From the NCBI RefSeq assembly GCF_964194025.1, contig NC_134472.1:20336001-20400000 (forward strand): a stretch of 64,000 nt of DNA, given 5' to 3'. Positions 805 to 58,788 of the stretch are shown here, one piece after another (position 1 is the first letter of the stretch; each line of letters opens with the position of its first letter). A program made the position numbers and the translations under genes. The notes below the pieces were generated by a model. It saw only the letters and a list, made by a program, of their open reading frames with translations. It had not been told where the DNA came from and searched no databases. Origin of the DNA: Convolutriloba macropyga (lineage: Eukaryota).

Positions 805-1054
805 ATGAAAATAGTTAGATTGATTTTGTTTGTTTTATTTGCAAATTCGTCTTCATGTCGAACTTTTGGGCAAAAAGAACTGTCAACTCCCAAATTTTCA
901 AGGTCATTACAATATAATATAGTGAATGGATACCGAGCCGAAGAAAGACCTTTTTACGTGCGAATTGTGACTCGATGGAGGAAAGAACTGATCTGTGGAG
1001 GGACAATTATTAGCAATTATTTTGTCCTAACTGCTGCATCCTGCTTTGAAAATA
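805..1054 (+). CDS. Gene A exon 1, secreted trypsin-like serine protease homolog (non-catalytic); join(805..1054,1942..2038,4498..5032), 293 aa
   Basis: Hydrophobic N-terminus, IVNG...PFYV...ICGGTIISNYFVLTAASC (His57->Ser); donor GTTAGT at 1055, phase 1. Confidence 0.9.
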
Positions 1055-1121
1055 GTTAGTCTGCTAAAAAAAAGTTTAACTGGTTGCCTATCAAGTTTTT
1101 GACATATTATAATCAATAGTT

Positions 1122-1525
1122 CCTTTGTCCAGAAGACAGAGCAGAAACGACGGAATAAATGTTGTTCGGTTCGCCACGTAAAAAACTGTCGGTGTGTTTG
1201 GTTTGTTCGGTATGTTTTGCTTCGAACGTATAAAATTGTTGATATGTTTAGCGTGGAACGTACGAAGATTTCTTACGTTTGAAACTGAACATAATGAATC
1301 TATGAAAAAGAACATTTTGACGACATCTGACGTTTTAAAACGGACCATACCAAAATTTTCTTGTGCTTGAATAATAAACATACCGATGATTTCTTACGTT
1401 TCAAAACACGAACATACCAACGATACCAAAGAAAAAACCTACTGGCTGTCGTCGTTTTTTGTCCAACTAAATCCAAACATTTTGACATTTTTTTACGTTT
1501 AAAAACGACGATTTCTGGACTATGG
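1122..1525. mobile_element. Possible MITE in gene A intron 1
   Basis: Imperfect termini CCTTTGTCCAGAA / TTCTGGACTATGG flanked by TT on both sides; internal inverted motifs. Confidence 0.3.
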
Positions 1526-1941
1526 TTGTAAATTAAAATTACCTTACATTTCCGATACATATTTCTGCAAAGAATATAACGCTACTACCAATTGCACGCA
1601 GAAACTTGCTCTTTCATAATAGTCCAGCCAAAAAAAATGGCCACTTCTGCAGTATCTTGTTCGATTCTGGGTGAAAACTTGCAAGATTATACATGTTTTG
1701 CTAGAATCATTATGGGTAGGCATCCAATTTAATTTGGTGCTTTAAACTGAAAAAAGTTACAAGATAATGAGGAGAAAATAGGCTTTCAAAATTAATTTCT
1801 TCTCGAGGAATATTTATTGCGAGAAAAGGGGTAAAGTATCCAGGATAGAGCCGGAAAAAAGTTTTAAAGACCGAAGTTCTGGCCGTTGCATTTATCGGTT
1901 AATGTGAACTACTCTAGATTTTTAATATTAGCTTTTTTCAG

Positions 1942-2038
1942 CTCAGCCATCATCTGCTGTTGTTGAGGTTGGCAATTTTCAGAGGGAGAGGTCGCCGAGA
2001 CAGATTCACCGAATTGCATGTGTTATCCTTGCACCCGG
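1942..2038 (+). CDS. Gene A exon 2
   Basis: TTTTTTCAG acceptor, GTACGT donor, 97 nt like exon 2 of B and C; reads QPSSAVVEVGNFQRERSPRQIHRIACVILAPG in frame. Confidence 0.85.
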
Positions 2039-4497: not shown

Positions 4498-5032
4498 TCG
4501 AGCCTTAGGAGTCAAAAGTGGCAATAGTTTGGCACTTGTACAACTTCGAAGTCCTGTTACGCAATTTCATCGCATTTTAAGTCTCTGCTTCGGCGTTGAA
4601 TACGATCACGGAACGCCAGTTGCTACCTGTGGTACTGGGTCCATCTCTGGCTCGAGATTTTCACCGACCAAAATTCTACGTGAAATTCAGTTAAGAGAAA
4701 ACAAACTACACAAACTATTCTCCCCCGTTGTAACTGAAAGGCGACAAATTTGTCGAGAAGATTCAGTTTGCACGACTAGAGTGACCCCTGGTGGCAACTC
4801 CTGTTTTGGCGATGAAGGAAACCCTTTATACGCTCGGAACCCGCGCTTTAATGGGAGTTATGTTCCGTTGTGCTTATACGGGGTTGCAACAGGATATGAT
4901 TCGAAACATAAGGACAAGGAATCGGACAAGTGTAATGGTGGGAGTCACTTCGCCAGGGTTTCCCATTTTTTGGGATGGATTGATTTTATGATGTGGGAAT
5001 CGGATCCTTTTGAAGAACACTGTTGTTTATGA
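4498..5032 (+). CDS. Gene A exon 3
   Basis: TTTTCAG acceptor; GNSLALVQL (Asp102->Ser), NSCFGDEGNPL (Ser195->Glu), LYGVAT, FARVS; total CDS 882 nt in frame. Confidence 0.9.
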
Positions 5033-9375: not shown

Positions 9376-10007
9376 TGTTTGGGTTTTGGGTCCGATTACA
9401 GTATTTGAGGAGCCACTGCGGGGCGTCAAGGTGGGGAAATAAAGAGAGGAAATAATTGATTTGTCATGTAGGAGTAACGATCACCTGCATGCCAAATTCA
9501 TTTTTCATAATAGACTTTAGTTTTTTGTAAAGTTAAGGCGTCTTTCTCTCAATAAAACGCTAGGGCTGTACTTTTGCTTTCAAAAAGTGAAATCATGAGA
9601 ATTTGAAATATATTTAGGACAACACCACGCTTTTTTCTCTTTATACTCATAACATGCTATCGGCGACTAGAATTCAAAAAAGTTTTAAAATTGCCACAGT
9701 CAAATCATAATTCACAAAATTCACATTGAAAAGAAGTGTTACCGAGAAGCATATGAATGAAGAAACACAAGGAGATTTGTATTTTGAAATACATTGTGCC
9801 GCATGAAGTCATTATTTGGTAATCAAACTATTTCTCCGTGGTGCCTAAAGAGTAAATTGTCAACTGAAGCAGCCAGTTACAAGCAATCGCATCAAAAATT
9901 AGATCATGAAGAACTCATTTTTCTTGATTTTAAGGATATCTTATACGCAATTTTTGAAAAGAGAATTCCGTTAATGTTAAACTACGCCGAAGACTAGTCA
10001 GGACCTC

Positions 10008-11658
10008 TTGATTCCAAAGTTTGAAATAAAAGAGAACGCAGTTAGAGTAAGCTTGATTCTCAATGTTGATGGAGCAAATGTTTGCAAGTCTCCCCCTCTG
10101 TCAGCCTGGCCAGTGTTCATTGCGATTGCTGATTTGCCACCATTCCAGCGCCAAAGTTTCAAGAATCTTACAATGGCTGCGGTATATGTTGGCAATAGCC
10201 ATCCAAATTTCAACGATATTTTCGACTTCTTGCAAAGAGAAATGCAGAAATCAGGTGCCATCAATTTTCAGGGTAGAAAAGTCACTGTTCATCTCAATTC
10301 TATACTTTTGATTGCCGATCTCATTGGCAAAGCAAAGATCCTGAATATGAAGCAGTGCAATGGATTTTACGGCTGTACATTGTGCCTCCAAAGAGGTGTT
10401 CACGTTCATGGATCCCATAGATACCCTCATGATGAAGCAATTGTCTTGAGACCGCTGGAGTCGCATATGGCGAACTTGGAAGCTTTAGAGAATGGCAGTC
10501 AAGAACGTCTTAAAGCAAAAAAATGGCCGCAGATCAGATTTTGAAAAAGAAACGCAAGGTGTCAAGGGCAGGAGTACTGTTTTTTCATTGATACCGAATC
10601 AGCCTTTGACTTCTCCTGTTGATGTAATGCACCAGTTGCTTCTGGGTGTTGCTAAAGAACTTCTCCTTTTCTACTACGAAAGATTACGCCATGACAAAAA
10701 GGTTGAACTTGATCTTTTTCTCTCCAGAAATGAAGCTCCTAAGGAGTTCACGCGAAAAATTTGTCCTCTAAAAGACATTGCCACGTTCAAAGCAAAGGAA
10801 TTCAAGGTCCACCTTTTGTATTTGGCACCTATTGTTTTCCCTCAGTACTTTTTCGGCGAAGATCGCATTAGCGATACTGAAGACCTCAATAAACTGATTT
10901 ATGCATTGCGCTCTCTATACGAAAGTTGCGATGAAGCAGCTCAATGCGAGTTTCGCTTGAGCATGAACGAAAAATACAATCAGTTCGAATCAATAAATTT
11001 TCATCTTCTTAGACATTTGGCGTGGCAAGCACAGAACATTGGACCGCTGTTTGCTACATCAGCATCAATGTTTGAAGCAGCCAACCATCGCGTAATTTGT
11101 CCTCTTACTGGAACTACTAACCACTGCGATCTCTTAGTAACGCGCTATGTTCGGAACAAGATCCTTGGAATACTCAAGATCAATGAAGACTGCTTGTCGT
11201 CTTGTCTGGATAGTAGCAGGGGAAGGAAGTTTAATGATACGTTTAGTTTAAAAAAAAATACTGAATCTCAATCATTTGAGGCCGAAAATCCGAGTTGCAG
11301 AATTTTTGGTCGTTTATTTACTGATTTCTACCTCACATCTACAGTTTACACCAAAAGTAAAAGGGCGGACAAGTTTGTCTGCATTGTTTTGGATGAAACT
11401 GTGGTTGGGGAAATTGATTTCTTCTACGAAATTGACAATAGCAAAGGTTTATGCCTAAAGATTTTCAATATTATACGTCGGCTCAGACTTGTAAATCACC
11501 AAAACACAATTGCTCGTTCTGTCTTTGGATATATTGTAGAGGAAACCGAGAAATTCATTCGCGTTCCTGTTTCGTCCATTACTTCAAAGCTTATTCCAGT
11601 TTTTTTTCAAGAAACTCTACACCTGGTTAAATTAATGAAACATTTTGAACATGAATAA
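10008..11658 (+). pseudogene. EnSpm/CACTA-type DDE transposase, frameshifted
   Basis: LNVDG, SAWPVF, IADLIGKAKILNMKQCNGFYGCTLC, GVKG, PVDVMHQLLLGV, FKAKEF, NFHLLRHL, GPL...FEAAN; frameshift near the A-run at ~10520 links ORFs 10008-10544 and 10492-11658; N-terminus decayed. Confidence 0.85.
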
Positions 11659-30269: not shown

Positions 30270-31407
30270 ATTTTTTCTAAGTTAAGTAATCAACCCCGAT
30301 CGTAAATAGAAAAACGTTGTTGCTGCGCCTCTTTGCTACATAAGAGGATCGCTGAAACCACTGGGGGAGGAAGACAGAGAAGACAAGGAGAGACAAGCCT
30401 TGTAGTCAAGAAGTGGCCAAGTGAGACCAGAAGAAGCAAGAGTAAGAAGCTTGTGTAACTGGTTGGGGGACTTCAGTTGTGGAGTTGGAAGCTTTTGTAA
30501 GTGGTTGGGGGACTTCACTTAAGAAGTGAGCAGTTTGTGAAGCTGGTTGGGGGACTTCATCTGTTGAGTCGAGAGCTGGTGTACCTGGTCGGGGGACTTC
30601 AATCGTGGAGTGCTAAGTGTGTGTAGCTAAGCAGTGGATTCTGCTTGTGAAGTAAAGAGTGAGTGGAGCTGTTGTGGGGGATCAAAAAGGAGCGCGGAGG
30701 TTCAATTGTATAACAGAGCTGTTGGGGAACCAGGATTGCTTAGTATAGCTGAGAACAGCTCAGCTTAAACAACTGTTTCCTTTTCAATTGTGTGTGCTGT
30801 GCTTCTGTAAGATACAAGTTTGGTCGAAAGACACAAATTTGGTGGTAAAAGATTTCTTAATTAGGACTAGGATTAGGGTTCGAGTACATTATCCTCGGAA
30901 GGTGTTGGTATCCTCATCGTGCTTATTCGCGGCAGAAAAACCCTGGCTCAATGTCAATGTCCTGCTTTCGATTTTGTCAAGGATACTACAGAACTCGAAC
31001 AGAACACCAACTTCTAGATTAATTTAGTCGACCAAACTCTTTTTGCTTAGTGTTTTTTTTTCTAACAAGTGCTACCATATAACAACAAGTGCTAACCTGG
31101 TGGTAAAAAGCATTTTATTGGATACACAAACATAACGACTCACCGCTTCGTCGCCAACACAACCACCAACAGGCAACAGATTCAAACACGCGTAGAAAAG
31201 AAAGGAGTTTTGATCTAAGTCCGAACAAGATTTTTTTGACAGCCGGACCCTTTTCACAAAAGAATATTTACCTAGAGCAGTACTAGCTTAGAAAAACAAA
31301 GGACATAGTTGGGGCATCATAAGTCTTTGGTTCAGTAGGGAACAATTAAAGCTAAAGAGTTAATTTGAGACGAACGGAAATTAAACGAAAGTAAGACAGG
31401 CCTAACA

Positions 31408-34776
<3,369 letters not shown>

Positions 34777-34790
34777 CATGATAGGAGGAG

Positions 34791-35187
34791 TGTTGAAAGT
34801 ATAAAGTTAATTGTTTAAAGTATGGAAAGATATACGTACCTCATCCGCGTGCTGATTTACATCTTGGTTATTTATGAAATGAGTGAATGCAACAAGGTGC
34901 TAATTATACTAGATTTGTCCCCAACTTTTCATATTGTTATAGGTGATTTGATGACCCTTGATCTTTTAGAGAAGTAAATTATCAGAGTAAATAGCTAGTT
35001 AAGATCGGATGTCATAAGAAGTCAAGGAAGTTATAATTTAAAGGTGATCACCATGATTGTAAAAGTGCGGTAATTTGGGGTAATAAATATTGACTGAATT
35101 TCGTGTTAATTGCCACAGTTGTCAACCATTATTTCTAATTTAACTATTCGATTACAAGATTTGTCTCTGCGTTCCCATTAACCGACA
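34791..35187 (+). repeat. Copia 3' LTR (397 bp)
   Basis: Follows the PPT; followed by TSD AAATT. Confidence 0.95.
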
Positions 35188-35571: not shown

Positions 35572-35668
35572 TTGATTGTAAATCAATTCTGGTTGAAGTT
35601 GGTGATTTTAACGATAGAAGGAGCCCAAAATACAGTCATGGAGTTTCACGAATTGTCACAGCTCCAAG
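35572..35668 (+). CDS. Gene B exon 2
   Basis: TTTTTTCAG acceptor, GTTAGT donor, 97 nt, VDCKSILVEVGDFNDRRSPKYSHGVSRIVTAP. Confidence 0.9.
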
Positions 35669-36219: not shown

Positions 36220-36444
36220 CTCTCATATTTCATATTTCATCGTTTTTCTGATCAGAAGAATAAAAAACATGAATTCATTTTTATTTTGTGAATCGAACAA
36301 ATTTTTAAGCAATCAGTTTTAAGCTTAACTATTAAATATTAATAATTTTCAACGGTGCTTGCATACAGTTTGATGAAAAATGGAACATCAAAAAAACTTT
36401 TACGGATCAATGAGATAATTTAGTAAGTCAGAACTTAAAAACAA

Positions 36445-39111
36445 CAAGGCGGCTCGGTAATGTGCAATGGCACATAAGGTTCCGACCCCGCCCATCCACA
36501 ATTTTGGCATAATTGTCTACCAAATGAGGAACAGATAGAAAAACCCAAAAATTATTTTTTGCGAATCCCAAAAAAGCCCAAGTATTTTTCAAAAAATTCT
36601 GTATGAACGATATGATAACCTCCAAAACAAACAACTCAGTGGAGTACAAATTGATGCATTAGATTGCTGTAATATGTCAATATTAAGAAAGCGAGTCAAA
36701 ACGAACAGCAAAATCAAGCAACAACAACAACAAACAATAATTACATCAAAAAATTTATGTCCCTCTTAAAAACTAAATTTAATAACAAAGTCAACATACC
36801 GTCAGATAAACATGAAACTAAACAAAAATAACTTATAAATCACCAGAAAACATATGCAACCAGTCCATAAAAAGGTTTGGTAACAATTATACAAAAAAGA
36901 ACAAAAACAGAAAAGTAAAAAAAATTAATTTATTTTTTTGAAACAATTAACTTCAAAGTAATATATACCATTAGGAATAAATTAATATTACCACAAATTT
37001 GCGATTACCACTGCTTCTATAGAAGGGCATTAGGACCTGACCTTATTCATTTTTTAAAGCGGCTAAAAAGAACAACAAAGAACAAACAAAATTTCAATTG
37101 AAACTTGCCAGAAAACGCTGTCAAAACCGTCAAGCCAAATTTTGGCACTCAAAATATATTTGATTGCGCCTTCTTCAAAAAGCTATAATGTAGTACGTGG
37201 CCATTCATTAGTAAGACTAGGTAACAAGTAGACAAAAAAGCGAAGTGCTAAAGTATGTAATACTTTTATTTTTTTTTCGAAACAAAATTACATTCAATGT
37301 CATGAAAGGCATTAATTACAAAAAGAGCTATTTAAATATCGTCGTTTTTTCATGAAAAGGAAACCCTCGAGACCTGTAATTATCCAGAATATTTCTTGCA
37401 TCTACAAAAAGAACGTCAAATATGACAAAAAATCAAAGTAATTTAATTTTTTTTTGTGAAAAAGCGGGGTCGAAGCCAGTAAGGTCATAACAAAATCTTT
37501 AAAAAAAGATTTTGGGACACCAATCCCTTTTATTCCCTTGACACCCATAATGTCATATTTGACCTGTAATCAACTAACGAGATTAGGTAACAAAAAGAAA
37601 CATAAAAAGAACAAAATTGCGAAGTTAAAAAAGTTTTTTTTTTTAATTTTGGAAAACGATGGGTTTGAAAGTCATAAAAGCCATCAGCTATCTGCTAATA
37701 TCAGAATATCGGTTTTTCTATTCTTCCATGAAAAGCCAATGAAAGCTATCACTATACAGGAAATTTCATACGACCGAAACGACAAAGTATAAATGACAGT
37801 TAAGACAAAAATTAAAAAATTCAATTGATTTCTTCAAGAAAGAGGCGTCGAGGCCATTAAAACGATGATTTATGTCTTTCAGCATTTTAATATGTTCAAT
37901 TGTGCTTTAATTTGAATGCTAATAAGGTGACATGAGAACTGTCAATAATGTGATAATGTGACAAAATTAGAAAACGTGAAAAACTGGCAAATATCAAAAC
38001 AAACAAAAATCTAAAATCTTGTAGTATCAAAGCCAGAAATCAATAGTTTCAGGCTTAAAACTGCAACCGAGAATAAAGGTTAACTCAGTAGAAAGAAGAA
38101 GCAGTCTTTTTTTGCTGACACTAAGCTGGAAGTTGAACAAATTACGAAAAAAATAGAGGAAAAGTTAATTAAGCCATTATTTATTGAAAAGTCAATTATT
38201 TTTAAAAAAGAAACGACCATAAACTTTCAATTAAAAAACTAAATGCATTAGCCTGGAGCTGTTTAGCAAGCGAATTGGTGGGACCTATCACTCCTGAGCT
38301 TTGATTTGATATGTTCTGTTCTTTATTATTAAAGAAAAGTCTTTTTTTTTTAAAAAAAAAAAGACCGACTGATTACAACCCGATTTTTTTTGGATTGTAA
38401 CAGTCCAAGAATGGCCCAAAACCACCCCTGTTAATACTTATTGTCCGTTAAGAACAATTGATTTTTCGAATGTTGTAGATATAGATAATTTCTGAGTTGA
38501 ATCTCAAAAAAAATTTTGCATTTTTGATAATCAACGAGTAAAGTTAGCAAAAAACGGCAAAGTTTTAACTACAAGGCACTCTCTGCGGATAGAAATAGCC
38601 CCCCTCTGAGTTTAAAAAGATTGTATGAGTGTTGTTTGGGGGTGTACTGTAGGCAAATTTAATCAAAGTGGACTAAAGTAGCTTATTTCGTGCTGTTGTT
38701 GATGAAAAAGGCTAAATTTTGAAATGTTTATCCAGATTTTTTGACCAAAAAATTAAATCAAAACAATCAACAATGCTTGTTCGTCTTCAAAAATAAAATC
38801 AACGACACTATTCTTAAAAATTGTAACAAATTTTAGCAAAATTGACGAAAATTTAGGCAAAAATTCCGGAAAATGTGAATAAAAACAACGTGAATTCACT
38901 CTTCTTTTCTCAGAAGTTTAAGCCTCGATAACTCCATGTAGAAAACGAAAATTAAAAAAATCTTTTTAATTCCATATTCTACGCTGGACGAGCTTTCTAA
39001 TGATACCAGTCTCAACTCTCTACGATGAATATATCGAGCGGCGAAAATTCACGGAACAAAAAAAAACCAGTTGAGTATATAGTTCCTCCCCCCTCAAGAG
39101 GGTCGGAACAA
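36445..39111 (-). mobile_element. Helentron-associated non-autonomous element (HINE/DINE-1-like) in gene B intron 2
   Basis: SubTIRs GTTCCGACCC/GGGTCGGAAC, terminal hairpin, no TSD; empty site at ~57749 in gene C; reverse complement of 50226-53142. Confidence 0.85.
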
Positions 39112-39470
39112 TAAAATTAACAACAGATGCTCCGTAACACATTTTTCTTTTCTATTAATTTTCAATGTTTTCAGTGATTCAGATATTATCATTGTCTGAT
39201 GGAAATACAGATTTATTTTCAAATTTTTACATCTGACGATTTGATGTGCTTCAAATTATCTATTAATTAGTTTTTTACCCTTTATTGTTAGAGCTCCTGT
39301 GTGCACATAAAATTTCCAGGGATGACTTAGTGTAACAACTATGATACTAAATTCATTTTTTTTGTCTGATGGGTTGAGGTCCCAGACGGAAAGTCGATAT
39401 GTCCAGACCCAGATGAACGCACGACGGGGGTGTCGTGCGTTCAAATTTACATGGTCTGGAAACAAGGAAA

Positions 39471-39945
39471 AACGCACGAAAGTCTGATCATGAACGCACG
39501 AATAGTCTGGTGAACGCACGAAAGTCTGATCATGAACGCACGAATAGTCTGGTGAACGCACGAAAGTCTGATCAAGAACGCACGAATAGTCTGGTGAACG
39601 CACGAAAGTCTGATCATGAACGCACGAATAGTCTGGTGAACGCACGAAAGTCTGATCATGAACGCACGAATAGACTGGTGAACGCACGAAAGTCTGATCA
39701 TGAACGCACGAATAGTCTGGTGAACGCACGAAAGTCTGATCATGAACGCACGAATAGTCTGGTGAACGCACGAAAGTCTGATCATGAACGCACGAAAGTC
39801 TGGACATGAACGCACTAAAGGTCTGATGAACGCACAATTTTTTTGTGCGTTCATCAGACTTAAGCGCGTTCATGTCCAGACTTTCGTGCGTTCTTGATCA
39901 GACTTTCGTGCGTTCACCAGACTATTCGTGCGTTCATGATCAGAC
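39471..39945. repeat. 42-bp (20+22) minisatellite with an inverted tail
   Basis: TGAACGCACGAAAGTCTGATCA + TGAACGCACGAATAGTCTGG about 8 times; inverted copies at 39845-39945. Confidence 0.95.
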
Positions 39946-40410: not shown

Positions 40411-40870
40411 CAAGGGCGAGAGAAAGAGGGGAGGGGGGAGGGAGAGCACCGAAAAATCTTGACGCCCGAAAGGCGTCCCACCCATTTTTAACTCTATATT
40501 TTTGATTTTTTTTTCAAAAAAACCGTACGCAAAACTAACTTTTTTTCTAGACAAGCTATACCAAAAATTCTTTTTGCTTCACACTCTAGATACACATGGG
40601 ATACTCCATACCAAGTTTGGTTCAATTTGGACAACTCCTTGACCCGATGAAATTCTTATATTTTTGAAAATAGAATAAGCGAATAAGTCGAAATTTCCGT
40701 ATGAAAAACTAACTTTTTTCCTAGGCAAGCTATACCGAAAATTCTTTTCGAAAATTTTAGACCAATTATGCTCGTTTTTGGTGGGTATGCTCCACTTTAG
40801 CCACAATTCGTGATAAAATTAAGAATCCGGACTGACCGAACTAATTTGGACAAGTGTTTACCTAGTTCCA

Positions 40871-41327
40871 AAAGTCTGGACATGAACGCACGAAAGTCTG
40901 GTGAACGCACGAAGGTCTGATGAACGCACGAAAGTCTGGTGAACGCACGAAAGTCTGGTGAACGCACGAAAGTCTGTCGAACGCACGAAAGTCTGGACAT
41001 GAACGCACGAAAGTCTGGACATGAACGCACGAAAGTCTGGTGAACGCACAAAAGTCTGGACATAAACGCACGAAAGTCTGGTGAACGCACGAAAGTCTGG
41101 TGAACGCACGAAAGTCTGTCGAACGCACGAAAGTCTGGACATGAACGCACGAAAGTCTGGACATGAACGCACGAAAGTCTGGTGAACGCACGAAAGTCTG
41201 GACATGAACGCACGAAAGTCTGGTGAACGCACGAAAGTCTGGACATAGGCACTTTCCGTCTGGGACGGTCTGGACATAGGCACTTTCCGTCTGGGACGGT
41301 CTGGACATATCGACTTTCCGTCTGGGA
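40871..41327. repeat. 20/22-bp minisatellite and 31-bp TIR-like repeats
   Basis: TGAACGCACGAAAGTCTGG(ACA) about 17 times, then three GTCTGGACAT..ACTTTCCGTCTGGGAC units. Confidence 0.95.
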
Positions 41328-41579
41328 CCTCAACCTGGGAGAAGAAAAGTGTTGCAATTATTTTTTGGATACTACTAATTAATTTAGCTTTTTCCTTTTT
41401 GTTTACTATAGGTTTTCAAATATGGCCATTGATGATCATCGAATATCTATTAAAATCCTTGTTTATGTGTTATAAGATTCGCTGAAAAATTTTATGATTT
41501 AGTGTCATTACTAAGAATGATACTTTTATGGTATTCATCTCAGGGTGATAAACTATCCTATAAAGTTGCGCTTTTTTAG

Positions 41580-42114
41580 CCAATTTCTGCTGGTCAAAAA
41601 CGGAAACAACCTTGCTCTGCTCCAACTCCGCCGACCAATTACGGATTGCATTCGAATTATCAGCATTTGCATCACAGAGAAAGAACACGGAACGCCAGTA
41701 GCTACCTGTGGTCTAGGTTCAACATCTGGCTCCAAATATTCACCGACCAAAAAACTGCGAGAAATTCAGTTAAGAGAAAACAAACTACACAAACCATTCT
41801 CCCCATTTGTAACTGAAAGGCGACAAATTTGTCGAGAAGATTCAGTTTGCACGACTAGAGTGACTCCTGGTGGCAACTCTTGTTTTGGCGATGAAGGGAA
41901 TCCGTTGTACTATCGGAACCCTTGCTTTAACAAAAGCTCTGCGGGTCCCTTTTGTTTATATGGCGTAGCAACAGAATACGATTCAAAGACCAACAATGAA
42001 TCTGAAAAGTGTGCAGGCGGGAGTTCTTTCGCAAGAGTGTCCCATTTTGCAAGATGGATTGATTTCGTACTTTGGCAGGCTGCACCAATGCATTTACCTT
42101 GTGGGATTTTTTAA
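41580..42114 (+). CDS. Gene B exon 3
   Basis: TTTTTTAG acceptor; GNNLALLQL (Asp102->Asn), NSCFGDEGNPL (Ser195->Glu); total CDS 882 nt. Confidence 0.9.
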
Positions 42115-46373: not shown

Positions 46374-48236
46374 TTTTATACTGCAAATGTTTAAAAATCA
46401 ATTATATAAAGGATCGAAGTAAAGGTGAAATAACGGGGTTAAAGTAGTAAGGGTTGAATAAATAATTATTTATTCAACCCCTACTATTTTAACCCCGTTA
46501 TTTCACCACTATTTAGATCCTTTATATAATTAATTTTAAACATTTGCAGTATAATCAGCTTACCTTTCCCCGCGGGCCATGACTCAGCGGACGTCGGATT
46601 CGATATGAAACTATATCCAAAAATCTGATAAAAAATTATGAGAAACATGGTTGTAATGCGACTGCTAATCTGACGGGTGAAATGATAGAGGGGTGAAATC
46701 ATATGGTGTTAAGATATGCGGGGGTAAGCTAATCGGGTTGAAAAGAAGTAAAACAGTGCGAACGGTGTGAAACGACCCATGGTTACTGGTTATTTGACTT
46801 GCAAAAGAGAAAACGTTTGTACTATTTTTTCAGTAACAAGAAAGTTTTTATTTGTCACCAAATTTGACTATTGAAGTCCAGATTTGAGGAATGAGTAAAA
46901 AATGACGAGAATTTCTGTGTCTTTCCCATAACAACTATTATATTATAATATAAACAGAGGTAGCTAGGAGTAACCATTGACAACAAACTGAGTTTCTCAG
47001 AACAAACCAAAAACGTTTAAAACAGCTATATGCAATTCTGTGATGTCTTTTTCGAGCTACAAAAACCTGCATGTTCTCAGTACATGTAATAGTGCTCTTG
47101 CAGGTGCAGTTATTGGTTATTTCGTTGTTAGTTGAATCATGTAAACTTTGATTTTTGTTAAAGGGTCCGATGAGCAGGAAAACCATTTGTTAGAAAAAGA
47201 TGTAAATTAAGCTATTAACTTTGGTTACTGTTTTATTTCTAATTGTCAATGGCGGGAGATTGCTGTGTGCAATCATGAGGCGACTCAAACTTTTATGGCA
47301 AAAAACGGCCGTCAATTCTTTGATCGCGCCCCTCTGTGGCCGAAAAGCACGACCAGCCGTCCTATTGTTGTCGCAAACCCTGCATGTCCCACAGATTGCC
47401 TATTTTAAAGATTGGAATACATAAGCTGAAATCATTATGCGATGTCTTGATTGTAACGGGTAACGATGAATGATTTCTCGGAAATTACATTAATGTTACA
47501 AAACAATTGTCTTAGTTTTATGTCGTTTTACTTTTCCTTGGGCATACTTTGCGTTCACATAAAAAGCTGCGCAAGGGCATTATGAATAGAAAATCTGAGC
47601 AATATGATTTACAGGCTTGAAATATCCAACAATAAACTATTTTGGTAAGGTGTTTTTAATATTCTTAAACGTGTCAATTCATACATACAACGGTACGTAA
47701 TGCTCTTTTTTTTCTTTTCAATGCTTAGGTACACTGCTGAGATTTTATATGATTGCGCTAAAGTAAATGGGATTTATTCGGTTTTGACCCCCAACTGTTT
47801 TTTATGACCCCCAGCTACGAATTATATGTTGTTATCTAGCTTGTTACTATGTAGGAAAATAGGGGTCTTTCCCATTCTAGCCCCCAACTTAGTGGTCAGA
47901 TAACCTATAGCCCCCCCCCCCCCCAATCATGGTAATTATACCATAATGGGGGGCTATAATTTCGTGGGGGGCTATAATGGGAAAGACCGAAAATAGCACG
48001 AGCGCCGGAGGGTCATAATATGTTTATGCTCACTAAGCTGGGGGGGGGGGAGGGCGAACCAGTAAATGCTTCATTTGAAGACCAACTCTATAAATAGGGC
48101 GGGGGAAAAGCAGTTAATTAGAAAATTTTGTTCAACATTTCGACTCACTAAATGGTTATTGATAAACTCCAGAAGTTCCTTCAAAAGAAGTCACGTTACC
48201 TATAAAGCTAAATTAATAGTTGGGATCTATTCTCTT
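46374..48236 (+). repeat. Extra copy of the B/C downstream flank
   Basis: Matches in blocks 42290-42930, 44150-44950 and 58965-61760; no exon 3 upstream of it. Confidence 0.8.
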
Positions 48237-49238
48237 NNNNNNNNNNNNNNNNNNNNNNNNNNNNNNNNNNNNNNNNNNNNNNNNNNNNNNNNNNNNNNNN
48301 NNNNNNNNNNNNNNNNNNNNNNNNNNNNNNNNNNNNNNNNNNNNNNNNNNNNNNNNNNNNNNNNNNNNNNNNNNNNNNNNNNNNNNNNNNNNNNNNNNNN
48401 NNNNNNNNNNNNNNNNNNNNNNNNNNNNNNNNNNNNACACGTTTATTACCTTTATATCATTTTAAGTAAAGCTATCATTATTTTGTGGATCTATTTAAAG
48501 GCGTTGGTCAAACAAGCCAATAGGCAGCCAATTTGTTAAATGAGGCCGAGTAAAGTTCGAGATGAAAAGGTCAAGATATAGTTATCATAAATTTTCTTAT
48601 GCGGCCTGGTGGACGCGCTTCCCCGCCTCGCTGTTTGCCGAGATAATTGGCTGATAATATCACCCCCCCCCCCCCCCCCCCCCACTTGACGGGAGGAGGG
48701 GGGAGGTTGCGACCGCGGATAGACATTCGATGCGCTATTTTGTTATTTTGTAAGTATTTTTTACAAAAAAATTGCCGGTAATGTAATGAGTTTCAGATCA
48801 ACCAATCAGAGCACGGGAAATATTCGGCTTTAGATCTCATTTTAAGGCATTCTGATCTACGCCCGTTCGGCTCTACCGGCTTCATCCGTGCTGCATCATT
48901 TGTCTGACGAAGAGGGGTCGAGGGGTCGAGAGGGTCTATGCAACCCTAGATTCTCTTCTTTTGATTAATTTTTAGTTGCGAGTCCTATGCGGTCAGAGCT
49001 GACTTTTGGACTTTCTGCCTGATTATATTTCTTTCTTCCTGAGCATATTTTGCTATCTTTTGTCACTAATCTCACCCCAATGTCAGGTGAACATGTCAAG
49101 TTTAATGACGTACTTGAAAATAGATTGCACTAAACTGTGAACCCTAATTTGTATTTGCTCAGAATTTTGTTTGCGCAAACAAAACATTGAGTTTGTTCAT
49201 TCTGAAACAATAAAAACAAACGCCACTTTCCTGTCAAA

Positions 49239-49488
49239 ATGAATATACTCACATTTTGTACTTTGCTTATTTTCTTTTTCGATTCCAGTTTATGTCGAAA
49301 TTTTAATACTAAATTATTCAAACCCGATTTTCGAAGGTCATTGCAACTGAATCTTGTTAATGGTTACGAATCAGAAAGGAGGCCATTTTACGTGCGTCTA
49401 GTGAAGCGGTGGACGAATGAGTTGATTTGTGGAGGTTCAATCATAAGTTACCGATTTGTATTAACTGCTGCTAAATGCTTAGAGAGCG
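49239..49488 (+). CDS. Gene C exon 1, secreted trypsin-like serine protease homolog; join(49239..49488,53432..53528,58251..58788), 294 aa
   Basis: Near-identical to gene B exon 1; TAAKC; GTTAGT donor. Confidence 0.9.
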
Positions 49489-50225: not shown

Positions 50226-53142
50226 TTGTTCCGACCCTCTTGAGGGGGGAGGAACTATATACTCAAATGGGTTTTTTTTGTTCCGTGAATTTTCGCCGCT
50301 CGATATATTCATCGTACAGAGTTGAGACTGGTATCATTAGAAAGCTCGTCCAGCGTAGAATATGGAATTAAAAAGATTTTTTTAATTTCCGTTTTCTACA
50401 GGGAGTTATCGAGGTTTAAACTTCTTTGAAAAGAAGAGTGAATTCACGTTGTTTTTATTCACATTTTCCGGAATTTTTGCCTAAATTTTCGTCAATTTTG
50501 CTAAAATTTGTTATAATTTTTAAGAATAGTGTAGTTGATTTTATTTTTGAAGACGAACAAGCATTGTTGATTGTTTTGATTTAATTTTTTTTTTGCCGAA
50601 AAGTCTGGATAAACGTTTCAAAATTTAGCCTTTTTCATCAAAAACAGCACGAAATAAGCTACTTTAGTCCACTTTGATTAAATTTGCCGACAGTACACCC
50701 CCAAACAACACTCATACAATCTTTGTAGACTCAGAGGGGGGCTATTTCTACTTCAGAGTCCCCTGAGAGTGCCCTGAATTTAAAAATTTGCCGTTTTTTG
50801 CTAACTTTACTCGTTGATTATCAAAAATGCAGAATTTATTTTGAGTTTTTAACTAACAAATTATCTATATCTACAACATTCGAAAAATCAATTGTTCCTA
50901 ACTGACAATAAGTATTAGCAAGGCTAGTTTTGGGCCATTCTTGGTCTGTTACAATCCAAAAAAATCGGGTTGTAATCAGTCGGTCTTTTTTTAAAAGACC
51001 TGTATTCAAAAAATTTGCCGTTTTTTGCTAACTTTACTCGTTGATTATCAAAAATGCAGAATTTATTTTGAGTTTTCAACTCAAAAATTATCTATATCTA
51101 CAACATTCGAAAAATCAATTGTTCCTAACTGACAATAAGTATTAGCAAGGCTAGTTTTGGGCCATTCTTGGACTGTTACAATCCAAAAAAATCGGGTTGT
51201 AATCAGTCGGTCTTTTTTTTTTAAAAAAAGACTTTTTTTTAATAATAAAGAACAGAACATATCAAATCAAAGCTCAGGAGTGATAGGTCCAACCAATTCG
51301 CTTGCGAAACAGCTCCAGGCTAATTCATTTAGTTTTTTAATTGAAAGTTTATGGTGGTTTTTTTTAAAAATAATTGACTTTTCAATAAATAATGGCTTAT
51401 ATAACTTTTCCTCTATTTTTTTCTTAATTTGTTCAACTTCCAGCTTAGTGTCAGCAAAAAAAGACTGCTTCTTCTTTCTACTGAGTTAACATTTATTCTC
51501 GGTTGCAGTTTTAAGCCTGAAATTATTGTTTTCTGGCTTTGATACTACAAGATTTTAGATTTTTGTTTGTTTTGATATTTGCCAGTTTTTCATGTTTTCT
51601 AATTTTGTCACATTATCACATTATTGACAGTTCTCATGTCACCTTATTAGCATTCAAATTAAAACACAATTGAACATATTAAAATCTTGAAAGATATAAA
51701 TCATCGTTTTAATGGCCTCGACGCCTCTTTCTTGAAGAAATCAATTGAATTTTTTAATTTTGTCTTAACTGTCATTTATACTTTGTCGTTTCGGTCGTAT
51801 GAAATTTCCTGTTTAGTGATAGCTTTCATTGGCTTTTCATGGAAGAATAGAAAAACCGATATTCTGATATTAGCAGATAGCTGATGGCTTTTATGACTTT
51901 CAAACCCATCGTTTTCCAAAATTAAAAAATAATTTTTTAACTTCGCAATTTTGTTCTTTTTATGTTTCTTTTTTTTTACCTAATCTCGTTAGTTAATTAC
52001 AGGTCAAATATGACATTTTGGGCATAATGGGTGTCAAGGGAATAAAAGGGATTGGTGTCCCAAAATTTTTTTTTTACAGAATTTGTTATGACCTTACTGG
52101 CTTTGACACCGGTTTTTCACAAAGAAAAGTAAATTAATTTGATTTTTGTCATATTTGACTTTGACAATCTTTTTGTAGATGCAAAAAAAAATTCTGGATA
52201 ATTACAGGTCTCGAGGGCTTCTTTTTCATGAATAAACGACCCTATTTAAATAGCTCTTTTTGTAATTAATGTCTTTCATGACATTGAATGTAATTTTGTT
52301 TCGAAAAAAAATTAAATTTATTACATACTTTAGCACTTCGCTTTTTTGTCTACTTGTTACCTATTCTTACTAATGAATGGCCACGTACTACATTATAGCT
52401 GTTTGAAGAAGGCGCAATCAAACATATTTTGAGTGCCAAAATTTGGCTTAACGGTTTTGACAGCGTTTTCTGGCAAGTTTCAATTGAAATTTTGTTTGTT
52501 CTTTGTTGTTCTTTTTAGCCGCTTTAAAAAATGAATAAGGACAGGTCCTAATGCCCTTCTATAGAAGCAGTGGTAATCGTAAATTTGTGGTAATATTAAT
52601 TGATTCCTAATGGTATTTATTACTTTGAAGTTAACTGTTTCAAAAAAATAAGTTAATTTTTTTACTTTACTGTTTTTGTTCTTTTTTTGTATAATTGTTA
52701 CCAAACCTTTTTATGGACTGGTCGCATATGTTTTCTAATGATCTATAAGTTATTTTTGTTTAGTTTTAGGTTTATCTGACTGTATGTTGGCTTTGTTATT
52801 AAATTTAGTTTTTAAGAGGGACATAAATTTTTTGATGTAATTAATGTTTGTTGTTGTTGTTGTTTGATTTTGCTGTTCGTCTTGACTCGCTTTCTTAATA
52901 TTGACATATTACAGCAATCTAATGCATCAATTTTTACTCCACTGAGTTATTTGCTTTATAGGCTACCTTATCGTTCATACTGACTTTTTTGAAAAAGACT
53001 TGGGCTTTTTTGGGATTCGCAAAAAATAATTTTTGGGTTTTTCTATCTGTTCCTCATTTGGTAGACAATTATGCCAAAATTGTGGATGTGGATAGGCGGG
53101 GTCGGAACCTTATGTGCCATCGCACATTACCGAGCCGCCTTG
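50226..53142 (+). mobile_element. Helentron-associated non-autonomous element (HINE/DINE-1-like) in gene C intron 1
   Basis: 5' GTTCCGACCC with nearby partial IR GGAAC; 3' GGGTCGGAAC, ATGTGC-CATC-GCACAT hairpin, CCTTG; no TSD; empty site at ~35282 in gene B; internal ~227-bp duplication. Confidence 0.85.
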
Positions 53143-53431
53143 TCGGATTCTATCACGAAATTTCCGATTTCATTTAGGGTTACTTTGCTGTGTTCAGGTG
53201 TTGCGTTTAATTTTCCAATTAAACCCGGCTAAAGTGGCTCCAAATCCTGCCATACAGAAAAATATAAAACAAAAGGGAGTTATTAAAGAAACTATGCACG
53301 AGGTCTATGAAGGAGAGAGTTATATTTTTCCTCCTACTTGAGATTGAACATAAGACGTTACTTCCATTTTGTAGCGTAACCAATTTGGTTTTTGAAATCG
53401 TCTCATCAATTAACTTATGCTCTTATTTCAG

Positions 53432-53528
53432 TTGATTGCAAATCAATTCTGGTTGAAGTTGGTGATTTTAACGATAGACGGAGCCCAAAATACAGTCATG
53501 GAGTTTCACGAATTGTCACAGCTCCAAG
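53432..53528 (+). CDS. Gene C exon 2
   Basis: 97 nt, AG/GT boundaries, same peptide as gene B exon 2. Confidence 0.9.
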
Positions 53529-53716
53529 GTTAGTCACTTTTTAAGCTTTTTAAAGAAATTACTCTCATATTTCATATTTCATCGTTTTTCTGATCAGAAG
53601 AATAAAAAACTGAAACTTGAAAATTGAGCAACAGACAAAAAAGAGCAACGTTCGAAAACAGTCGCTTACTAATTCATGAACTGAATTGAAACTATTGCAC
53701 TGCTTACGTAAAAATC

Positions 53717-54370
53717 ATGGCCAAATTCGCGTTCGAATCTGAAATTTGTTCAATTACTGACAAAAAAATGCGAAACATTCTTACTTATTTCCATAAAAAA
53801 CTTATTGAAAAAGACGACCAAATAGTTTCTCTGACTAACCAAGTTACCGAACTGGAATCCAGAGTGATTCAATTGGAGCGGTATAGTTCCAAAGACACAA
53901 TTATTATAAATAACCCCCCTCTGCAACCTGGTAACGCCAACATAACAGATCAAATTCTATTTTTCTTTAACAAATGCTTGAATTATTCGATGTCTGCGGA
54001 CGCAATCAAAGCCTGTCATCCCTTGGGTATTTGGAAAGGTAACAACCCCCCCCCCCCCCCCCCCCCCGCGGTAATTGTCAAGTTTATTTACTTCAACGAT
54101 AAAATTGAATTATACAATCGTCGACCAATGCTCGCAAATTTTAGGAACCCACTAAATGGTAAACCCGTATATATGAAAGAACGTCTCCCCCAACATGATT
54201 TGGCTATTCAAAAGCGCGCTAACGAGCTGGATTTGGTCACCACGACCTACAACTGTAGAGTAAAACTGTTTTTAAAAACTGAGAATGGGAGTGTAACACA
54301 ACCTGTTGATAGTGTTAAAGCAGTTGAAGATCTTGAATCACGGGCAATCAAGAAAATATCTCCTAATTAA
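53717..54370 (+). CDS. LINE ORF1 protein (coiled coil followed by RRM-like region)
   Basis: 217-aa open frame, ELESRVIQLERYSSKDTIII, CHPL, VIVKF, YMKERL; lies upstream of ORF2. Confidence 0.8.
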   Translation: MAKFAFESEICSITDKKMRNILTYFHKKLIEKDDQIVSLTNQVTELESRVIQLERYSSKDTIIINNPPLQPGNANITDQILFFFNKCLNYSMSADAIKACHPLGIWKGNNPPPPPPPAVIVKFIYFNDKIELYNRRPMLANFRNPLNGKPVYMKERLPQHDLAIQKRANELDLVTTTYNCRVKLFLKTENGSVTQPVDSVKAVEDLESRAIKKISPN

Positions 54371-54655
54371 CGCAACCAAGCCAACAACTGGAATACTAAC
54401 CAATTGTCAACTCAGCGACGAAACAAACGACCTGGCGATGTAATTGAAATTGATAATTTTGACGATATTTATCATATGGGAGCAACACCAGCTGGAAAAA
54501 AACTTAATGACAACAATACTCCACCCAATAGATGATTGTTCAAACATTAAATAACGCGGCTTAAAAAACAGGCGCAGTGTACACTTCCTTTTCGACTTCG
54601 TGTTTTTGTAAAAGTTTTAATATCAAGTAATTGGACAATCATCTATTACTTGGAA

Positions 54656-57432
54656 ATGGATAAACACTCGAAAGCGCTTTTGTTTATAAATGTGCAATCC
54701 CTAAGATCCCATCATGACCAACTGTGCTGTCAACTAGAAACCCTCAAAACCAAACCAGCTGTAATAGCTGTATGCGAAACCTGGCTCACTGATAACGATC
54801 CCATAGATATATATTTCATAACAGGGTATCAACCATTGAGAGTAAAAAATAGAAACGACAAAAAAGGAGGAGGCGTTGGCTTTTTTGTACGAGAAGATTG
54901 TAAGATAAAATCTAATTTCTTTTTTGAAGAAATTCTGGAACATCTACTCCTATCCATAGAGATCGGAAAAAAGCGAATAAATTTCTGTGTTCTATACAGG
55001 CCTCCCTCGGAAAAAATTCAAAATTTCCTTGAGACTTTTGAAAGTTTATTGTTCAAAATAAACGCGATGAAAGAGGTAACTATTATTTGTGGTGACTTTA
55101 ATATTGATATCTCTGATGCATATCATCAACAGTACCAAAACTTGATCAATTCATTTAATTATGAAATGCAAAACGCAGAACCTACAAGAGTAACTAAGTT
55201 CACGAGCAAATGTATCGATCATATTTTGTCAAAACAATCGAAAGAAGTATCAACCCTGAAATGGTCTTTCAGCGATCATTACGCTCTAATTTATGAATTT
55301 GATTTTTCAGTCTCTAGCTCTCAATCTAATGAATTTTATTACAGTCGTGATTTTGAATGAACAGAATTATTTGAACTTCCTCTTCATTCTCCAACATAGA
55401 TTAAACACGATGAATAGTTATGATCTTGAAAGTTCATGGTGTGAACTAAGTTCAATCTTTCTACAAATTTTTGATGATAAATGTTCAATTACGAAGAAGA
55501 AAATCGTCAAAAACAGTTGGATGACAAACAGGTTAAAGAATCTCATTAGCAAGAGAGATCGGGCACATCATACACTCATATCTCACCCAAATAGTAAAAA
55601 TGAAGTCGGGTTCAAGCAATTACGTAATTTAGTAACAAATGAAGTGCGAAATGCTCGCAAACAACACTATGATCAAAAACTGACTTTATCAGGTAGTCCA
55701 GCACAAAAATTTAGAGTGTTCAAAGAATTCCTAGGGCGAAGGAAAATATCAGTAAAAGACATTGATGTGGAAGAATTTAATCACTTTTTTATCAACGTAG
55801 GGAAGAAAGTGAGTAACACAAATTTTCACAATGTAGACAGTGATCTAGTTTTACCATGTCACGACAAAACTTTTTTCTTATTTCCCGTCAACACTATCGA
55901 AATATTCAACATACTAAGTTCATTAGAAAACAAAAGCACAGCGGGTCATGATGGAATTAGTAATAAACTTTTAAAACTTGTAGCTTCTGTAGTTAGCTAT
56001 CATGTGGCTAAGCTGATAAATAGGAGCATTCAAGAAGGGTTTTTTCCGGTTTGTCTTAAAACAGCTAAGGTAATTCCTATACATAAAAATGGAAGTTTTG
56101 AAAACCCTTCAAACTATCGACCAATTAGTCTATTGTCATCCCTAAGCAAAGTGTTTGAAAAAGTCTTGAATACAAGAATGGTTGAATTCCTCGAAAAACA
56201 TCAACTTCTCTCAAACGAACAGTTCGGTTTCCGGCCAAAACGCTCATGCACACACGCTATCGCATCAGTTACAGAACTGATGCGAAATGTTATTGACTCA
56301 CAAAAAATGGGTTTCGCTTGCTTCATTGACTTTCAAAAGGCATTTGACACAATTGATCATTCACTTCTGATAAAAAAATTACAAAATCTAAGCTTTCGAG
56401 GAAAAATTAGTTCACTCATTGCTTCATTCCTGTCAGATAGAAAACAATTTGTAGTCCACGGATCAAAAGAGTCGAAAAAAATGGAAATTAATGTAGGTGT
56501 TCCATAGGGATCAATTTTGGGCCCGTTGCTGTTTCTTTTGTTTATCAATGATCTGCCTCAAATTGTTCAAGATAATTCAAAATTAGCACTTTTTGCAGAC
56601 GACACAACAATTTTAACATCAGGCAATAATTTGGAAATTAAGGAAAAGCTCAATAATGTCTTGAAAAAGATTGAAAATTGGTCCTCAAGAAACAAACTTG
56701 TCATTAACAGTAAGAAATGTAAAATTGTTGGTTTTGGCCGGAATGTACAAAAATCAAAAAATCTGCTATCAGGCGAAGTGCTTGAAGAAGTAAATTCATT
56801 CAAATATCTAGGAGTGTTCATAGATAAGCATCTCAATTTTGATCTAGACATTTAATATGTTGGCAAAAAATTAGCCAAATTCAACGGAATGCGGTTCCGA
56901 GCAAGAAACTTTTTTACGAAAACTTTTTTATTACAAATGTATAATAGTTATGCCAAACCAATGATATCGTACGGCATTTTAGCTTACGGTTCCGCAAAAA
57001 AAAACAAAACTCAATTCGATTTTCTGTCTACAAAAACGCATTTTAAAGACTATATTTTTCAAAAAGAGAGGAGACCATGTATGCTATCTTTTCAAGCGTT
57101 ACAACGTGCTGTCAGTTTTTGACTTATATTTTGACGCTCTTGTAAAAGAGATCCTGGATCAGATTGCAAAAGTTTCTCCTTTGAATTTTCTTGATGTTGA
57201 CAGTAACATGCCGAACACGCGGGCATCCATTAAGTCACTCATCCCTTTACCAAAATTTAAAACACAGACTCAGAAGAAATCCTTGAGATTTTCAATAATA
57301 AAAATGTTCAACTACCTTGCTAAAGAAAGTCTATTACCCAAACAAGTATCTAAAGAACAGATTTTTTCGATTCGAACTAAACTTAGGGCATATTATTTGG
57401 ATAATAAAGATGTTTTCGATTTGTTTTTTTAG
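54656..57432 (+). pseudogene. LINE ORF2 (APE endonuclease + reverse transcriptase), disrupted
   Basis: AVCETWL, ICGDFN, CIDH, SDH; NYRPISLL, QFGFR, DFQKAFDTIDH, GVP*GS, LFADD, KYLGV; frameshifts and stops. Confidence 0.95.
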
Positions 57433-58250
57433 GTATTGCACGTTTTTTCTCTGGGCACCTCTTGTAGAGTCATTTGACTCGTATGGTGTCCAAGGTGGTA
57501 ATTTGATTAAACTTAATATTCTGTATAAAATGCTCTGTATCATCTACCATCTGAATTTAAATCAAATCAAAGCATGAATTCATTTTTATTTTTTGAATCG
57601 AACAAATTGTTAAGCAATCAGTTTTAAGCTTAAATATTAAATATTAATAATTTTCAACGTTGCTTGCATACATTTTGATGAAAAATGGAACATCAAAAAA
57701 ACTTTTACGGATCAATGAGATAATTTAGTAAGTCAGAACTTAAAAACAATAAAAATAATAACAGATGCTCCGTAACACATTTTTCTTTTCTATTAATTTT
57801 CAATGTTTTCTGTGATTCAGATATTATCATTGTCTGATGGAAACACAGATTTGTTTTCAAATTTTTACATCTGACGATTTGATGTGCTTCAAATTATCTA
57901 TTGTTCAGTTTTTTATCCTTTATTGTTAGAGCTCCTGTGTGCAAATAAAATTTCCAGGGATGACTTAGCGTAACAACTATGATACTAAACTTTTTTTTTG
58001 TCTGATGGGCAGAAGAAAAGTGTTGTAATTATTTTTTGGATACTACTAATTAATTTAGCTTTTTCCTTTTTGTTTACTATAGGTTTTCAAATATGGCCAT
58101 TGATGATCATCGAATATCTATTGAAATCCTTGTTTATGTGTTATAAGATTCGCTGAAAAATTTTATGATTTAGTGTCATTACTAAGAATGATACTTTTAT
58201 GGTATTCATCTCAGGGTGATAAACTATCCTATAAAGTTGCGCTTTTTTAG

Positions 58251-58788
58251 CCAATTTTTGCTGGTCAAAAACGGAAACAACCTGGCTCTGCTCCAACTCC
58301 GCCGACCAATTACGGATTGCATCCGAATTATCAGCATTTGCATCACAGAGAAAGAACACGGAACGCCAGTAGCTACGTGTGGTCTGGGTTCAACATCTGG
58401 CTCCAAATATTCACCGACCAAAAAACTGCGAGAAATTCAGTTAAAAGAAAACAAGCTACACAAACCATTCTCCCCCGTTGTAACTGAAAGGCGACAAATT
58501 TGTCGAGAAGATTCAGTTTGCACGACTAGAGTGACTCCTGGTGGCAACTCCTGTTTCGGCGACGAAGGGAATCCGTTTTACTATCGGAACCCTGGCTTTA
58601 ACGAAAGCTCTGCGGGTCCCTTTTGTTTATATGGCGTAGCAACAGAATATGATTCAAAGACCATAAACAATGAATCTGAAAAGTGTGCTGGTGGGAGTTC
58701 TTTCGCAAGAGTGTCCCATTTTGCAAGATGGATTGATTTCGTACTTTGGCAATCTGCACCAATGCATTTACCCTGTGGGATTTTTTAA
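58251..58788 (+). CDS. Gene C exon 3
   Basis: GNNLALLQL, NSCFGDEGNPF; one extra codon relative to B; total CDS 885 nt. Confidence 0.9.

Follow-up and report, generated by a model that had tools for sequence, protein, structure and literature searches.

Trypsin-fold proteins of the S1A family that have lost catalysis (pseudo-proteases) are well known, and three more of them would be ordinary. The beta chains of HGF and MSP, haptoglobin, protein Z and VaaSPH-1 are non-catalytic S1A domains that act as ligands, cofactors or scaffolds; protein Z has Asp195, and haptoglobin has Lys57. Azurocidin/heparin-binding protein (CAP37) is a cationic chymotrypsin fold with Gly195, and the arthropod serine protease homologue (SPH) PPAF-II, a non-catalytic S1A protein from large families, carries a clip domain. 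The scabies mite inactivated protease paralogues (SMIPP-S) form a multigene family, specific to this parasite's lineage, of S1A pseudo-proteases with a single domain, in which an aromatic residue blocks the S1 pocket (PMC4031079). Members are defined by descent from mite group 3 allergen paralogs and by binding of complement. Here we analysed a window of 64,000 nucleotides from Convolutriloba macropyga, a photosymbiotic acoel (contig NC_134472.1, positions 20,336,001 to 20,400,000), which contains three tandem trypsin-fold genes, named A, B and C. The three genes are new members of this known class, and what is unusual is the scale and pattern of the family around them, which has an acid at position 195 and is apparently undescribed. 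A literature search returned no account of this acoel family or of a natural His-Asp-Asp trypsin fold, with subscription papers and bioRxiv supplements outside its coverage.

The TAAxC and GDEGNP exons were located by a six-frame motif search, which gave three of each, every one on the + strand, and the 97-nt middle exon was then placed in each gene:

805-1054, + strand: gene A exon 1, with likely signal peptide, propeptide, Ile16 and Cys42-Cys58; position 57 is Ser (1039-1041)
1942-2038, + strand: gene A exon 2, 97 nt
4498-5032, + strand: gene A exon 3; position 102 is Ser (4526-4528), followed by Asp194, Glu at 195 (4814-4816) and the stop
28959-29208, + strand: gene B exon 1; position 57 is Lys (29193-29195)
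35572-35668, + strand: gene B exon 2, 97 nt
41580-42114, + strand: gene B exon 3; position 102 is Asn (41608-41610) and 195 is Glu (41893-41895)
49239-49488, + strand: gene C exon 1; position 57 is Lys (49473-49475)
53432-53528, + strand: gene C exon 2, 97 nt
58251-58788, + strand: gene C exon 3; position 102 is Asn (58279-58281) and 195 is Glu (58564-58566)

Exon lengths are 250/97/535 nt in A and B and 250/97/538 nt in C. Predicted splicing gives GT-AG at all six introns and products of 293 (A), 293 (B) and 294 aa (C) with no internal stops, and the proteins are identical to the RefSeq models XP_075246990 (A), XP_075246991 (B) and XP_075246992 (C), whose automatic names are azurocidin-like (A among them) and myeloblastin-like. 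The full open reading frames (ORFs) with a common exon structure that the initial annotation had proposed are thus confirmed. The segment 35187-35283, guessed to be exon 2 of gene B from B-C intron identity, was rejected as intron, and no further family exons were found within 30 kb beyond either end of the window.

Chymotrypsin numbering was anchored by HMMER alignments to PDB 2b9l and 1fy3, and a second time by structural alignment, in which residue 39 of the model equals chymotrypsin residue 16. These alignments bear out the earlier claim that the whole triad is replaced: at residues 57/102/195, A has Ser/Ser/Glu, while B and C both have Lys/Asn/Glu, and the His57-Asp102-Ser195 triad of an active S1A protease is absent from all three. 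Because nucleophile, base and acid are all gone, catalysis by these proteins is very unlikely. Nor is there an open S1 pocket with Gly216 and Gly226, as Tyr216 and Ser226 are present. Asn189 and the TGY/TEY motif at 214-216, which had been noted before, do occur in A, B and C, but Asn189 and the lost Gly216 are family-wide and are also found in members with the full His-Asp-Ser triad, so they do not mark loss of catalysis. At the sequence level the Ile16-Asp194 switch is kept, with Ile or Leu16, Gly19 and Asp194 all present in the three proteins.

A, B and C are S1A-fold proteins of the PF00089 family. They matched Pfam Trypsin (PF00089) with E values of 1e-18 to 1e-16 and 62-68 bits against a cut-off of 20.6, the AlphaFold model of A (predicted local distance difference test score, pLDDT, 83.8) is chymotrypsin-like, and the cysteines are conserved, so that the trypsin fold and core cysteines are retained as first supposed. 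The closest structure to the A model was PR3 (Z 28.4, root-mean-square deviation 2.5, 215 residues aligned), and the best structural matches, PR3, granzyme M, elastase and azurocidin, were tied at Z 27.8-28.4. The Pfam scan found no accessory domain in A, B or C: PF00089 stands alone, without a clip domain. The N-terminal 9-mer of each protein is hydrophobic (Kyte-Doolittle 2.5-3.0) with no membrane segment further on, and the proteins are likely secreted. Their isoelectric points are 9.1-9.3 and their net charges +12 to +15, within the top 4 of 42 family proteins.

Set against the described systems, A shares with azurocidin a single-domain chymotrypsin fold, Ser57 (TAASC in both), the lack of Ser195 and a cationic character; azurocidin 1ae5 gave Z 27.8 to the A model, and identity is only about 30% (28-31% across the AZU1/PRTN3/ELANE group). 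In the sequence alignment, made to the chain of its G175Q mutant, azurocidin keeps Asp102, whereas A has Ser102, Glu195, a propeptide of about 20 residues and extra cysteines. The likeness is probably resemblance rather than orthology, because PR3 and elastase, both active enzymes, reach equal Z scores; the acoel sequences formed their own clade apart in a tree without any azurocidin sequence, and the Gly195/Asp102 pattern is not shared. PPAF-II (PDB 2b9l) is the best PDB sequence match of A (E 3e-11). It has Gly195 and keeps His57 and Asp102, whereas A, B and C have a trypsin domain only and a wholly changed triad; they show neither the clip domain nor the Gly195 with His57 and Asp102 of clip-domain SPHs. 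The group of HGF/MSP, haptoglobin and protein Z consists mostly of multidomain, single-copy vertebrate plasma proteins, in contrast to the stand-alone domains and large radiation of the acoel family. SMIPP-S comprise 33 sequences from a parasite, whereas the acoel family has more than 100 loci in a free-living animal; the likeness is drawn from the published description only, whose available part does not mention the conserved acid 195 with His57 coupling that the acoel family has (PMC4031079). No SMIPP was among the top PDB matches.

Selection was measured as dN/dS by the Nei-Gojobori method with bootstrap intervals. The ratio was 0.24 for A-B (95% CI 0.15-0.34, dS 1.1), 0.28 for A-C and 0.13 for B-C (95% CI 0.06-0.28, dS 0.11), and exon-3 values of 0.11-0.24 were obtained in 14 of the 15 subclade-locus pairs with finite dS. 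Gene conversion has probably left a tract common to A and the B/C lineage:

4688-4783, + strand: likely gene-conversion tract, A versus the B/C lineage; codons 180-211 of A

Within it, 29 of the 30 codons that encode the same residue are also identical in sequence; the overall figure is 109 of 183 (permutation p 1e-4). With codons 176-219, which include the conversion tract, removed, the mature protein gave an A-B dN/dS of 0.15. In the five pairs free of conversion that A, B, L004 and L006 form, residues 176-227 (170-loop to 197) had pN of 0.10-0.12 versus 0.24-0.32 in the rest of exon 3, with similar pS. The idea that A-B identity at residues 191-227 marks a conserved binding face holds only partly, the identity there being largely the conversion tract. 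Given dN/dS values of 0.13-0.28, a chymotrypsin-like predicted fold and retention of the Ile16-Asp194 switch, A, B and C are intact, selectively maintained pseudo-proteases; the initial annotation had named the dN/dS comparison as a check, and its result agrees with intact genes under selection.

The acid-195 family was then sized in the genome. Of 276 candidates in the genome, 150 were scored, and every one of these matched exon 3 of A; the pattern C-x-x-D-[DE]-G-x-P-L-[YF] occurred at 107 sites, with none in the control; among the 100 of these sites listed, 59 were Asp and 41 Glu by eye. The same frame with codon 195 beginning with A, C or T, a pattern that leaves out Ala, Gly and Val codons there, gave 93 sites against 20 in the control, 32 of them Ser by eye. 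The canonical C-x-G-D-S-G-[GS]-P gave 68 sites (control 1), one of which is Thr, hence at most 68, so the acid-195 sites outnumber the canonical GDSG[GS]P sites in this genome. As the site patterns are strict, the counts are lower bounds, and they take in haplotype duplicates and broken copies. A lineage-specific expansion had been suspected from three genes, and a family of more than 100 loci goes far beyond them.

At the protein level, the best 150 of 163 representatives yielded 131 Asp194 domains in proteins of up to 345 aa, with Glu195 in 39, Asp195 in 37 and Ser195 in 15, the Ser195 count taking in non-acoel trypsins; in longer proteins (>345 aa) Asp195 was found in none of 40 Asp194 domains. 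The commonest single triad state of the family is His-Asp-Asp, as in XP_075240060; XP_075257593 is an example of a His-Asp-Ser member. The named members come from C. macropyga and Symsagittifera roscoffensis, and all 18 matches of a His-Asp-Asp query below E 1e-13 come from one or the other. A quick IQ-TREE tree was built from 70 domains that covered all three positions and were 190 aa or longer, with no protein contributing more than two (isoforms P0009, P0164 and P0166 and repeat hits P0081 and P0131 left out); in it the 42 acoel sequences formed one clade with SH-aLRT 100. A, B and C fell with P0003, P0167 and P0021 in a starred Glu195 subclade, and 3 of the 42 acoel sequences are His-Asp-Ser. 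An alignment of 40 sequences showed Asp194 in 40/40, Ile, Leu or Val16 in 39/40 and Gly19 in 39/40; position 189 is Asn in 26/40 and Ser in 11/40, Ser214 is kept in 31/40, and Gly216 occurs in 0/40.

Position 195 goes together with position 57. Among the 42 acoel sequences, the seven with Asp195 have His57 in 7/7 and Asp102 in 6/7 at a mutual identity of only 28-40%, whereas His57 is found in 4/32 of the remaining non-Ser sequences (Fisher p 2e-5). All full-length Asp195 proteins (7/7) have lost Gly193, and all Ser195 proteins (3/3) have it. Genome-wide, the His57 motif occurred at 155 sites (control 14), exceeding what the canonical Ser sites can explain; the motif misses many His57 exons. 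We paired 100 of these 155 sites, those listed on contigs C1-4 and C7-12, with 195 sites up to 40 kb downstream, and 9 of the 62 entries of the A/C/T-codon list were dropped as chance-like. An upstream His57 motif was found for 28/45 Asp195, 13/22 family-type Ser195 and 4/20 Glu195 sites (p 0.003 versus Asp), for 7/25 other canonical Ser sites and for 3/31 other sites, among which chance entries may persist. At 20 kb the contrast was 22/45 for Asp195 versus 4/20 for Glu195 (p 0.03). Nine Asp195 loci, chosen for a paired His57, were fetched, and eight proved to be His-Asp-Asp and one His-Asn-Asp; the His-Asp-Asp state is present in both C. macropyga and S. roscoffensis. A His-Asp-Asp site is thus conserved, since His57 is as frequent with Asp195 as it is with Ser195. 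On starred branches there is one phylogenetically independent Asp195-His57 pair, so the coupling is inseparable from descent, and the genomic counts are raised by gene clusters arranged in tandem on C7 and C10. Shared descent alone could account for the coupling, but retention across such divergence still implies constraint. For the family core, a His57-Asp195 ion pair that locks the site is most likely as the simplest reading. Lys or Arg stands at 57 in 9/21 Glu195 proteins versus 1/11 other non-Ser, non-Asp proteins (by eye), and we propose that Lys/Arg57-Glu195 could be a later equivalent of this pair. A, B and C look like further-decayed Glu195 offshoots of the His-Asp-Asp lineage.

Taken together, we consider it probable, with real room for doubt, that A, B and C are maintained trypsin-fold genes encoding secreted, cationic, non-catalytic binding proteins whose propeptide would be clipped so that residue 16 pairs with Asp194. 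The ancestor would have been an elastase-like acoel S1A lineage with Asn or Ser189, non-Gly216 and extra cysteines, which may have exchanged Ser195 for Asp while retaining His57 and Asp102, most likely as a site-locking ion pair. Sub-lineages including A, B and C would then have moved to Glu195, losing His57 (to Ser, Lys, Arg or Asn) and Asp102. Removal of the propeptide would let residue 16 pair with Asp194 and order the remodelled cleft, and the switched protein might bind anionic surfaces or proteins outside the cell, such as microbes, symbionts, mucus or active paralogs; azurocidin and SMIPP-S are precedents for such binding. The retained Ile16-Asp194 switch, the constraint on the 170-197 region and the likely signal peptide are in keeping with a secreted binder that would be switched at its propeptide, and the cationic surface suggests, by analogy, an azurocidin-like target. 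HGF and MSP are cleavage-activated and bind through the pseudo-active site (PMC13194640). The objection that a non-basic residue 15 means a protein is never activated was rejected, as His-Asp-Ser members likewise carry Ala or Leu there.

Several observations weigh against this explanation or parts of it. The basal tree is unresolved, with 19 of 39 inner branches open, so we infer the order Ser to Asp to Glu. The exon-3 pair L005-L006 has a dN/dS of 0.62. Identity between A and B near the cleft is partly gene conversion rather than selection, and the constrained cleft region (residues 176-227) also contains the core cysteines of the fold. The nearest paralog, P0003, has a net charge of 0, and cationicity is thus not fixed in the subclade. 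In SMIPP-S, it is the face opposite the dead site that is conserved and functional (PMC4031079), and because of this precedent the cleft need not be the binding face.

Other explanations account for parts of the same evidence. In one, the three proteins serve the His-Asp-Ser members of their own family in a protease cascade, as cofactors or competitive decoys without catalysis, in the manner of arthropod SPHs, protein Z or VaaSPH-1. This seems to us unlikely: active-looking paralogs do exist in the same clade (3 of 42 sequences; 32 of 93 sites Ser by eye), with the pre-Ile16 motif and non-Gly216 in common, and the top PDB sequence match of A is a prophenoloxidase activating factor, but the three proteins have no clip or other accessory domain, and non-Ser members outnumber Ser members by about 3:1 or more, beyond what cofactors would need. 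Dying pseudogenes of ordinary trypsins would explain the lost catalytic residues, the many transposon insertions in introns and the broken or partial copies elsewhere; this reading is refuted by dN/dS, whose intervals lie far below 1 at dS near 1. The frames are also open, the cysteines and the switch are conserved, and over 100 relatives from two species carry the same acid at 195; its probability is close to negligible.

A bolder alternative is that the family core is a new enzyme with a His57-Asp102-Asp195 triad, using an Asp nucleophile or an acid-base or metal site, and that A, B and C are its pseudo-enzyme offshoots, serving as decoys or regulators. The retention of His57 (7/7) and Asp102 (6/7) in Asp195 proteins despite 28-40% identity, the genomic pairing (Asp 28/45 versus Glu 4/20), the eight of nine fetched loci that are His-Asp-Asp, with that state in two species, and the retained Ser214 (31/40) all speak for it, and a Ser-to-Asp nucleophile swap has precedent in the alpha/beta-hydrolases (epoxide hydrolases, haloalkane dehalogenases). 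Loss of Gly193 in 7/7 Asp195 proteins, however, disfavours a canonical oxyanion hole, a fold-stabilising His-Asp ion pair explains the coupling equally well, and the counts come down to one independent pair and are swollen by the C7 and C10 clusters; we therefore hold this alternative to be quite improbable. Catalysis by the His-Asp-Asp site, if real, would introduce a type of nucleophile new to the trypsin fold. An acoel trypsin-fold enzyme class of this kind, with dozens of genes working as Asp-nucleophile hydrolases or through a metal site and the Glu195 genes of the window as dead decoys, is given a correspondingly small chance.

A separate question is whether B and C are two genes or two haplotypes of one locus placed end to end in the assembly, which would leave the nature of the protein unchanged. 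The following feature lies between their duplication units:

48237-48436, no strand: exactly 200 N in a row, separating the B duplication unit from that of C; may be a scaffold gap

The B-side homology stops exactly at this junction (47158-48236 versus 60664-61760), B-type and C-type exon 3 lie on separate ENA contigs (longest 28.6 and 157.7 kb), and across exon 1 of C every contig listed at full depth is B-type, and the C-type pieces there have a depth of 2-3. Haplotype duplicates can inflate gene families (PMC9911081). In the four sequencing runs, which cover introns like DNA, single-copy contig depth at A is 29.2/30.1/42.7/44.9, while B-type contigs (40.5/29/45/31.9) and C-type contigs at exon 2 (34.2/24.1/35.9/25) are near single-copy; contig depth is no copy number, so this argues only weakly against haplotypes. 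Outside coding sequence the two units show 89-94% identity, and they carry different sets of transposon insertions. The B-C dS of 0.11 and the 89-94% intron identity exceed the 1-4% allelic differences at A, and the first 564 bases after the N run are unmatched upstream of B. On balance, two haplotypes are a possibility worth keeping in mind but a doubtful one.

The biological setting gives the binder reading its interest. Acoels are without the major conserved immune signalling pathways (PMC12849515), and for this reason a large secreted binder family is a candidate replacement for them; handling of algal symbionts is another candidate role. In that study three serine proteases were down-regulated when the animals met Vibrio, although for one of them the shrunken fold change was close to zero; they carry Trinity ids only and are thus unmatched to family genes (PMC12849515). 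Since annotation pipelines label the family as proteases, 'serine protease' signals in acoel expression studies may be mis-read. Acoel secretory cells are diverse, and trypsins go unmentioned in the available part of that description (PMC8097308). A term search of the accessible text of PMC11091193 gave 0 matches for this family, and the available portions of PMC9911081, 10.64898/2026.09.27.754747 and PMC2229344 held nothing on it.

Other family loci showed further features. Stops were seen by eye inside 12 of the 150 genomic matches to exon 3 of A. At L068 (C5:65190901-65191014), immediately downstream of the paralog P0003, lies a second copy of a 3' part of that gene's last exon, containing a stop. 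L075-L077 (C10:47.86-47.93 Mb) are clustered intronless His-Asp-Asp genes, possibly retrocopies that later duplicated, while most family members have 2-4 introns. A tandem array at C12:8.09-8.92 Mb (L085) holds about 12 family-type genes, mostly with Ser195 and His57, and is likely the active branch of the family. At C4:37.50-37.70 Mb, three sites have Ser195 with Gly193 replaced by Cys. The multi-domain proteins P0157 and P0178-P0180 (Logan, ENA), with Gln-Asp-Glu and Lys-Asn-Gln triads, adjoin the acoel clade with weak support.

The introns and intergenic DNA of the window are rich in repeats. Intron 1 of gene B contains a Copia-type long terminal repeat (LTR) retroelement (29849-35187), not found in intron 1 of gene C, with LTRs at 29849-30255 and 34791-35187 that are 95.6% alike and with broken gag, zinc-knuckle and pol ORFs. 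Intron 2 of gene C carries a non-LTR retroelement (53690-57432) with endonuclease and reverse-transcriptase ORFs in pieces; run contigs diverge from the window at 53610, suggesting an allele without this element. A 2.9-kb element without a long ORF lies at 50235-53143 (intron 1 of C) and, inverted, at 36444-39115 (intron 2 of B); its contig depths add up to 10^5-10^6, where single-copy DNA has about 30-45. Overlapping ORFs of 187 and 389 aa at 9981-11658, the first with weak Transposase_21 / DUF1258 matches, are likely a frameshifted EnSpm/CACTA-like transposase. Tandem arrays lie between and inside the genes (13152-13785, 13997-14422, 21644-26483, 39417-39869 and 40797-41415), with units of 174 bp and 55 bp as well as longer degenerate arrays.

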